Positions 1 through 327 of a DNA stretch of 327 bases are shown piece after piece. A program made the position numbers and the translations under genes. The stretch is taken from NCBI RefSeq assembly GCF_003334355.1, contig NZ_QOWP01000115.1, one strand, 5' to 3'. A model generated the notes under the pieces. That model was not told the DNA's origin. It saw nothing but the letters and a program-made list of their open reading frames with translations, and did not search any database. The DNA is from Escherichia coli. Lineage in GTDB: Bacteria; Pseudomonadota; Gammaproteobacteria; Enterobacterales; Enterobacteriaceae. The first letter of the stretch is position 1. Every line of letters starts with the position of its first letter.

Positions 1-327
1 TTCAACGGGCGGCCTGACTGCACCATCTCTCCACAGGCAAGAACGGCGTGCCCCGCCGCTAAAATGTTACGAGCGCCGTTTACATCGGCGTTCGCTGTAT
101 ATCCACATACCTGGCATCTGAATTTACTTTGTGACAGGCGGTTCTCTTTCGCTGTATGACCACAGTACGCGCAACGCTGGCTTGTATACGCTGGCGGAAC
201 AGCAAGCACCTGACCGCCACGCCAGAGCTGCTTGTACTCAAGCTGGCGGTGCATTTCATACCAGCCCTGATCCAGTATCGAACGGTTTAAACCTGATTTT
301 GCCCGGACATTGCGCCCCGGCTGGCTG
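1..327 (-). CDS. tnpB: Partial CDS, truncated at both window edges: C-terminal region of a TnpB-type RNA-guided endonuclease (IS200/IS605- or IS607-family accessory protein OrfB). Complete codons span 3-326.
   Basis: Seen in sequence: the reverse-complement frame starting at + strand 326 reads 108 codons with no stop, while the other two minus-strand frames and all three plus-strand frames contain stops. The translation has the TnpB hallmarks in the family order: GW..L.YK, then [11 protein letters not shown], a second C..CG, then the [14 protein letters not shown] RuvC-III motif. Codon usage looks enterobacterial. From unverified memory it closely resembles the E. coli IS609 TnpB (insQ/ydcM-like); this needs a BLAST check. 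Confidence 0.9.
63..92 (-). other. RuvC-III catalytic motif of TnpB ([10 protein letters not shown]), conserved Asp codon (gat) at + strand 84-86
   Basis: Seen in sequence: the reverse complement of 63-92 reads aac gcc gat gta aac ggc gct cgt aac att, i.e. [10 protein letters not shown]. Established knowledge: the third RuvC catalytic residue of TnpB/Cas12 is an Asp in an N-A-D-x-N-(A/G)-A-x-N-I context just downstream of the zinc finger. Confidence 0.8.
105..173 (-). other. Zinc-finger (zinc-ribbon) motif of TnpB, C-x2-C-x15-C-x2-C (CAYCGH ... CQVCGY), all four Cys codons intact
   Basis: Seen in sequence: Cys codons at + strand 171-173, 162-164, 114-116 and 105-107 (minus-strand tgc, tgt, tgc, tgt). 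Established knowledge: TnpB and Cas12 proteins carry a CxxC...CxxC zinc finger inserted between RuvC-II and RuvC-III. Confidence 0.8.

Follow-up and report, generated by a model that had tools for sequence, protein, structure and literature searches.

The 327 nt stretch of Escherichia coli DNA considered here (contig NZ_QOWP01000115.1 of assembly GCF_003334355.1), referred to throughout as the window, meaning the whole stretch that was analysed, lies within insQ, the tnpB gene of the insertion sequence (IS) IS609. It is a piece of an annotated gene and, as such, an ordinary and already described feature, and its origin is most probably the chromosomal IS609 copy located between ydcL and ydcO. 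The best overall explanation, which we hold to be very probably correct, is that insQ encodes a TnpB nuclease that works with an omega RNA and that, by homology to better studied TnpBs, would cut the donor joint left by the element. The same 327 bases appear to do double duty, coding for protein and also supplying the 5′ half of the predicted guide-RNA scaffold.

Only one reading frame is open through all 327 bases (56 % GC), namely frame 2 of the minus strand which specifies a 108 aa peptide, and the plus strand includes only short open reading frames (ORFs) of 31 and 44 aa. The peptide matches Pfam PF07282, the Cas12f1-like TNB (target-nucleic-acid-binding) domain, with an E value of 4e-24 and scores 110.6 bits on the NCBIfam model NF040570 'RNA-guided endonuclease TnpB', which is over the curated cutoff of 100. 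The open frame together with the TnpB match is far beyond chance. When the window was used as a megablast query against 5426 complete E. coli genomes, matches of 327/327 were found in the chromosomes of three strains, A5, 41 and PSS-12, and all matches are annotated as insQ or as 'RNA-guided endonuclease InsQ/TnpB family protein'. The insQ gene of K-12 (b1432), which is in an annotated IS609, shares 322 of the 327 positions, and insQ copies at other sites share 316–321. The preliminary description of this DNA, made from the sequence before any search, had recognized the TnpB of IS609 (InsQ, formerly YdcM), and this was borne out, as the best hits lie in the TnpB family and the identity to enterobacterial TnpBs is high. 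It had also placed the window at the C-terminus of the protein; this is near the mark, in that residues 283–390 of 402 are covered, and inexact, in that the window ends 12 codons (37 nt with the stop) before the end of the gene. The window allele encodes H308 and E312 in place of the R308 and A312 of K-12 InsQ. The coding features are, in window coordinates:

1–327, minus strand: internal fragment of insQ (tnpB of IS609), codons 283–390 of 402 (open frame, 100 % identity to annotated insQ, NF040570 above cutoff).
324–326 and 3–5, minus strand: InsQ codons 283 and 390, respectively.
63–263, minus strand: TNB (target-nucleic-acid-binding/zinc-ribbon) domain and RuvC-III segment, InsQ residues 304–370 (the PF07282 match, residues 22–88 of the fragment).
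105–173, minus strand: CxxC...CxxC zinc finger (C334, C337, C353, C356), located from the motif positions and aligning with the zinc finger of ISDra2 TnpB.
63–92, minus strand: RuvC-III motif, aligned to 'DRDENAALNI' of ISDra2 TnpB and conserved across 86 homologous loci.
84–86, minus strand: codon (gat) for the catalytic Asp363.

Each of the three exact matches is inside a 402-codon insQ in the gene order tehA-tehB-ydcL-[tnpA pseudogene, opposite strand]-insQ-ydcO-sutR-rlhA. In K-12 MG1655, the same locus (1503161–1504908, 1748 bp) is annotated as 'insertion sequence:IS609' and includes the yncK pseudogene and insQ b1432. The window sequence is present in 4902 of the 5426 genomes (90 %), at 9734 places of which 495 are on plasmids, and the number of IS609 insQ places per positive genome has a median of 2 (range 1–7), which supplies the copy number that the preliminary description had left open. 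A probe spanning the junction between the right end (RE) of IS609 and ydcO was fully covered in 3265 of the 5426 genomes and, hence, the insertion at ydcO is a polymorphism found in approximately 60 % of E. coli.

The ends of the element were defined by comparing the K-12 IS609 and 300 nt of flanking sequence on each side with copies at other sites, namely between gltX and yfeD in an O157:H7 strain, between yjfZ and ytfB in strain EC-1639, and in two P1-like phage-plasmids. For the element at ydcO, identity to the annotated K-12 IS609 with its flanks was 98.8–99.4 % over 2348 nt, and homology to the insertions at other sites ceases exactly at the annotated IS609 ends. At three independent sites on the chromosome, the element has TTTAT on its left flank, and the right end terminates in ...GATGTCAA, with GGAGGATGTCAA as the RE terminus. 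There are no terminal inverted repeats, and imperfect hairpins lie subterminally at the left end (LE; CCCCGTCC-TTCA-GGGCGGGG) and at RE (CCACGTCC-TTCA-GGGCGTGG), as in the IS200/IS605 family. Hairpins at both ends, here with TTCA loops, are what the preliminary description had proposed looking for. The ends and the TTTAT flank agree with the published cleavage sites of IS609, TTAT at the left and TCAA at the right (PMC6906374). Strain PSUO2 has no element at ydcO, and its empty allele reads GCGCTTTTTAT/TATCGGTTTCTGTCAG (TTTAT/TATCGG..., with the slash at the insertion point), indicating a precise insertion 3′ of TTTAT without target duplication. These ends, hairpins and insertion at TTTAT without duplication are the defining features of the IS200/IS605 family, and IS609 fits them.

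The insertion is exactly at the stop codon of ydcO (locus L001, 6404–6407, past window position 1; empty allele at locus L089, 1489–1516). In occupied alleles, the TGA stop of ydcO comes from the last bases of RE, and YdcO ends in ...DRNRY versus ...DRNR in the empty allele. At both the ydcL site (L001, 4634–4660) and the gltX site (L006, about 2620–2659), TTTAT closes the T-tract in the intrinsic terminator of the upstream gene (a hairpin, then TTTTTAT), which suggests that IS609 tends to land just past terminators.

A tnpA gene of the Y1 HUH type (IS200-type), with the motifs HVHLL and YIEQQ, is divergently oriented and lies 7 nt upstream of the start of insQ, where the preliminary description had advised looking for one, and it is a pseudogene at the exact-match locus. 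The tnpA frame is open in the O157 and EC-1639 copies, and NF033573 (IS200/IS605 transposase; cutoff 55) gives 138 bits for the product of copies with an intact frame. Polymorphism was examined in a sample of 12 genomes with orthologous ydcO-locus copies, and tnpA is broken in all 12. Three carry GAA>TAA at codon 62, two of them with an additional 1 nt deletion, six carry TAT>TAA at codon 76, five of them with an additional 5 nt deletion, and three, K-12 and BL21 among them, carry TTA>TGA at codon 96. There are thus three independent tnpA nonsense alleles and two deletions at one chromosomal insertion and, with tnpA inactivated, the IS609 at this locus cannot excise on its own. The preliminary description had offered two configurations, a standard IS copy or a solo tnpB lacking tnpA. 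The ydcO-locus copy is neither; it is a functionally solo tnpB within a structurally complete element, with both end hairpins, an intact tnpB, and a tnpA that is dead rather than absent. Among related loci with enough upstream DNA (n=69), the divergent tnpA was kept in 50 and missing in 19.

Among the three genomes that match the window exactly, no two have the same tnpA nonsense allele (codons 62, 76 and 96), a pattern that may point to recombination inside the element or to a recurrent window allele. In Escherichia, the IS609 tnpA ORF (L006 and L008, 2660–3148, and L009) has no stop within the element and continues across the LE hairpin into the adjoining host sequence; the tnpA of most relatives ends 4 codons past YIEQQQ. 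The stop-less frame is probably the reason why PGAP flags Escherichia IS609 copies as 'incomplete; missing C-terminus'.

The type of transposase next to insQ also bears on whether InsQ could be a TnpB of the IS607 type with a serine recombinase as its partner, for which a match of 191 bits to NF038280 (IS607_TnpB) might speak. That score falls short of the cutoff (350), both the motifs (HVHLL ... YIEQQ) and the NF033573 score of the partner identify it as a Y1 HUH enzyme, and the ends are IS200/IS605-type hairpins. This assignment was rejected, and we rate it as extremely improbable.

Full-length InsQ scores 379.5 bits on NF040570 and aligns end to end with the structures of ISDra2 TnpB (8bf8/8ex9/8exa/8h1j; E=1e-55). 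The Pfam domains HTH_OrfB_IS605 (PF12323), OrfB_IS605 (PF01385) and Cas12f1-like_TNB (PF07282) are all present. The acidic residues of the RuvC domain, D183 (in GLDAGV), E267 (VIEDLK) and D363 (NADVNG), match D191, E278 and D361 of ISDra2 TnpB. The four zinc-finger cysteines also align, and the window itself spans the zinc finger and D363 only. Judged by its sequence, InsQ belongs to the RNA-guided DNA endonucleases of the TnpB type; its N-terminus is of the helix-turn-helix (HTH)/WED kind, the RuvC domain, which holds D183, E267 and D363, is split, and a zinc ribbon is present. The aligned catalytic triad and cysteines make the nuclease look catalytically competent. An insertion of 15 residues (residues ~278–297; window 282–327, minus strand) lies between RuvC-II and the TNB domain and is missing from ISDra2 TnpB in the alignment. 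Residue Y336 (CAYC), considered as a marker of the ydcO-locus copy on the basis of L001–L004 versus four paralogues, was dropped because the 12 orthologues vary at nucleotide 1007.

The window fragment also gives weak matches to models for Cas12f2, C2c8 and CasX, and Enterobacteriaceae harbour nuclease-dead repressors (TldRs) that descend from related TnpBs (bioRxiv 10.1101/2023.11.30.569447), so that a domesticated TnpB of the TldR type or a miniature, Cas12f-like type V CRISPR effector had to be considered. The retention of D183, E267 and D363 and of both transposon ends, beside a Y1 tnpA, led us to reject a TldR. A type V effector was rejected because the Cas scores are far under the cutoffs (Cas12f2, 92 versus 450; C2c8, 141 versus 350) and the 12 kb around the three copies holds ordinary housekeeping neighbours and no annotated cas genes, though no dedicated search for CRISPR arrays was made. 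The chance that InsQ is either of these is, in our view, negligible.

The last ~170 nt of insQ together with RE are predicted to form the scaffold of a guide RNA (omega RNA). We gathered 80 homologous loci, with 57–94 % protein identity, from the Enterobacterales, the Burkholderiales and other groups. The RE terminus GGAGGATGTCAA is near-invariant in about 70 loci, and the sequence past RE is unrelated between loci. A MAFFT alignment of 37 homologues from the RuvC-III codon to the end of RE was folded using RNAalifold, and the predicted scaffold comprises 48 pairs in 8 helices, with double changes that preserve pairing (compensatory) at 26 of the pairs. Paired cells made up 94.7 % compared to 37–50 % when the partners were slid by 1–3 columns, cells with double changes numbered 138 compared to 19–38 in the slid controls, and the observed measures were reached by none of 500 shuffles. 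Helices H3 and H5 covary strongly despite lying within codons, and H7 and the RE hairpin, H8, also covary; for H1, H2 and H4, support comes mostly from pairs that are invariant or changed on one side. A conserved structure for the predicted omega RNA, formed by the 3′ end of the gene and RE and ending at the transposon boundary, is present. The parts that concern the window are:

1–90, minus strand: 5′ half of the predicted omega RNA scaffold, overlapping the coding sequence (RNAalifold, 37 homologues; covariation).
74–90, 62–67, 43–59, 33–37 and 8–28, minus strand: H1, the 5′ arm of H2, H3, the 5′ arm of H4, and H5, respectively.
43–59, minus strand: helix H3, GCGGCG-GGGCA-CGCCGT, with 4 of 6 pairs compensatory (GC<->CG, GC<->AU), inside the codons for 'AAGHAV'; the best-supported RNA helix wholly within the window.
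8–28, minus strand: helix H5, with 4 of 6 pairs compensatory.
1–80 nt past window position 1: the remainder of the scaffold, with the RE hairpin and the guide.

At the base of H5 (window 8 and 28; alignment columns 87 and 66), the alleles of the ydcO locus have an A.C mismatch where the copies of O157 and EC-1639 pair A with U and those of the phage-plasmid, Escherichia sp. and Citrobacter pair G with C, which makes a compensatory series within very close relatives.

A search of Rfam with the window alone returned only a chance-level match (UPD-PKib, E=10). With the whole element and a relaxed threshold, sub-threshold matches to sot0042, HgcC and RAGATH-18 (E 0.02–0.06) were found on the same strand and at the same place, and these are supporting only and do not indicate membership. 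In PMC4615843, the sot and HgcC RNAs are transcripts of tnpB 3′ ends with an 'RE-like UUCA tetraloop', to which the TTCA loop in the RE of IS609 corresponds, and a sense-overlapping transcript at the 3′ end of a tnpB that its main text does not name is reported from E. coli K-12 RNA-seq data. A promoter scan found no sigma-70-like site on the sense strand upstream of the RNA region and a total number of sites no higher than in shuffles; hence, an independent promoter for the omega RNA cannot be claimed. The omega RNA would be processed from the tnpB mRNA, as for other TnpBs.

The TnpB/omega RNA mechanism is established for homologues. For GstTnpB2 of Geobacillus, TTTAT was shown by experiment to be the target-adjacent motif (TAM), and the role of this enzyme is to cut the scarless donor joint and in this way let recombination reinstate the transposon (bioRxiv 10.1101/2023.03.14.532601). 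In the case of IS609, the element resident at ydcO would yield the guide TATCGGTTTCTGTCAG, approximately 16 nt of host DNA just past RE, and the TnpB-omega RNA complex, by homology to the ISDra2 and Geobacillus TnpBs, would recognize TTTAT followed by a match to the guide. TTTAT joined to the guide match would constitute the scarless donor joint, that is, the empty allele, which the complex would cut, and recombination with an IS-bearing copy would then restore the element. The empty allele carries exactly TTTAT and then TATCGGTTTCTGTCAG. The donor-joint mechanism very likely holds for IS609 in general, for which we infer transcription and processing of the RNA and cleavage by InsQ from the homologues; at the ydcO locus, the mechanism cannot be triggered by the transposase of the resident copy.

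Several points weigh against this explanation. As tnpA is dead at the ydcO locus, the canonical re-cutting of the donor joint after excision cannot operate there in cis. The window includes neither D183 nor E267 nor the flanks, and its assignment to the ydcO locus rests on three exact database matches. InsQ scores 306 on NF038281 (the IS200_TnpB 'exception' model), under the cutoff of 425. A literature search on the activity, TAM and omega RNA of InsQ/IS609 returned no functional study, and the IS609 TnpB is named merely as one of nine purified TnpBs (PMC12781874). The HpyTnpB of IS608 was inactive in a similar assay (bioRxiv 10.1101/2023.03.14.532601) and homology is, thus, no guarantee that InsQ is active. 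As to the RNA, changes in H1 are one-sided only, the base of H5 is mismatched in the ydcO-locus alleles, and the covariation of the RE hairpin could stem from a role as a DNA hairpin for TnpA.

At the ydcO locus, insQ has stayed intact after the death of tnpA, being a full 402-codon ORF in all 12 orthologous copies. Its segregating sites include 19 synonymous and 18 non-synonymous ones, giving a ratio of non-synonymous to synonymous polymorphism (pN/pS) of 0.27 (binomial p=1e-4 against a neutral expectation of 22:78), and the pN/pS of the host neighbour ydcO in the same genomes is 0.33. Of the two genes, tnpA (426 nt) took five disabling events and insQ (1209 nt) took none, a distribution with a probability of (426/1635)^5 = 0.0012 if the events are independent. 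It may be, then, that the present-day role of the same gene is a different one, and that insQ and its omega RNA are selected for an activity independent of TnpA, either the cutting of empty ydcL-ydcO alleles or a host function. An insQ that is intact throughout the sample and as constrained as ydcO, beside a tnpA one third its length with at least three independent nonsense alleles and two deletions, is what such a role would leave, and empty alleles with the TAM and a perfect 16 nt target are common (~40 % of E. coli). However, 12 genomes is a small sample and within-species pN/pS values are noisy, gene conversion from other IS609 copies (a median of 2 per genome) could refresh insQ, and some of the constraint may predate the loss of tnpA. 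The dead tnpA-LE region, with 23 segregating sites in 534 and per site fewer than the synonymous sites of insQ, is not a clean neutral yardstick, and activity of InsQ at this locus is itself a prediction. We therefore regard a TnpA-independent role as possible but doubtful. The more specific proposal, that insQ and the omega RNA at ydcL-ydcO have been kept by selection after repeated independent losses of tnpA and act without a transposase, for example by cutting an incoming empty allele, is unlikely. If true, the bacterium that has been studied best would possess a stand-alone system for RNA-guided allele drive or exclusion; with n=12 and the possibility of gene conversion from other IS609 copies, selective retention of insQ is a lead, not a result.

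The same data can be read as those of a decaying relic, an immobile element without current function in which insQ is intact because little time has passed or because active copies occasionally convert it. In keeping with this, tnpA is already dead by several routes, a paralogous copy (L008) has a premature stop at insQ codon 399, H5 has its A.C mismatch in the ydcO-locus alleles, and Tnp-less derivatives are found on phage-plasmids. Moreover, we estimate that approximately 37 substitutions would produce only ~1–2 nonsense hits in insQ, making the observed zero weak evidence alone. The significant excess of synonymous over non-synonymous polymorphism in insQ and the five-to-none distribution of disabling events speak against a relic, and we think it improbable. 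The explanation that we prefer is still that of an IS609 insQ encoding a TnpB nuclease with an omega RNA.

Beyond the E. coli chromosome, the module made up of tnpB and RE was found in 1712 plasmid records (Klebsiella 805, Escherichia 527, Salmonella 227, Shigella 113) and in 11 phage records, for example those of the P1-like phages RCS47 and SJ46, where it is beside ddrA, and of Morganella phage IME1369_01. The P1-like phage-plasmids carry a ~1.34 kb derivative of IS609 without tnpA (L005, 3072–4407; L007, 3171–4405; MN510445, pJIE250-3), in which, in L005, 59 nt of LE are fused straight to insQ and RE; its neighbours, depending on the record, are anti-restriction (darA/ddrA) or head-processing genes. 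In the filamentous Escherichia phage If1 (U02303.1/NC_001954.1, 8.4 kb), a stretch of 647 nt (6409–7055), annotated as 'ORF348', is 96 % identical to the middle of insQ and could stem from an IS or be an artefact of the clone that was sequenced. The 254 kb jumbo phage Aeromonas phage AP1 (MT713136.1) includes 291 nt (238144–238434) with 96.9 % identity to the 3′ end of insQ and RE, at two places in the record. A 2057 nt stand-alone contig in the assembly of Streptomyces mutabilis JCM 4400 (L017, NZ_BMTT01000064.1) encodes an InsQ homologue (81 % identity) and an enterobacterial-type tnpA, and is probably a contaminant in this actinomycete assembly.

The analysis fixes the identity, locus and copy number of the window and the status of its tnpA. 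The annotation of K-12 and of thousands of RefSeq genomes already includes IS609 with its gene, ends and family, and nothing found here departs from IS200/IS605 biology. What it offers is a modest lead, namely a natural and genetically tractable E. coli case of an intact TnpB beside a repeatedly inactivated TnpA, in a species in which both the occupied and the empty target alleles segregate.

The closest known system is the IS609 of K-12 MG1655, which is the same element at the same locus with the same ends and the same 402 aa InsQ; it carries the codon-96 allele of tnpA, and the genomes with the exact window sequence carry the codon-62, -76 and -96 alleles. The TnpB of ISDra2 from Deinococcus radiodurans (PDB 8EXA/8BF8/8H1J) has in common with InsQ the HTH/WED, RuvC and zinc-ribbon arrangement, the aligned D-E-D triad and, as predicted for InsQ, a guide RNA drawn from the 3′ end of the gene and RE. 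InsQ differs in the 15-residue insertion past RuvC-II. IS609 also differs from ISDra2 in its divergent tnpA and in its flank motif, TTTAT, that of ISDra2 being TTGAT. The TnpB2 of ISGst2 from Geobacillus stearothermophilus (Meers et al., bioRxiv 10.1101/2023.03.14.532601) has a TAM, 5′-TTTAT, that is the same as the IS609 flank, and the same logic would apply, in that the TAM abutting the sequence that flanks RE makes up a donor joint matched by the guide. However, its host belongs to another phylum, and the Gst TnpA was shown to be active in that study whereas tnpA at ydcO is dead. The sotRNA and HgcC RNAs (Rfam RF02656 and RF00062; PMC4615843) are sense transcripts of tnpB 3′ ends with a stem of ~8 bp and a UUCA loop near the 3′ end, and the RE hairpin of IS609, CCACGUCC-UUCA-GGGCGUGG, is alike. 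With Rfam scores of 18.9 against a gathering threshold of 88 and 22.2 against 50, the IS609 RNA would be the same kind of RNA and lies outside those archaeal families. Finally, the TldRs (bioRxiv 10.1101/2023.11.30.569447) are likewise derived from TnpB, with a guide RNA from the 3′ flank and no working transposase, but InsQ keeps the catalytic triad and the transposon ends, both of which the TldRs have lost.

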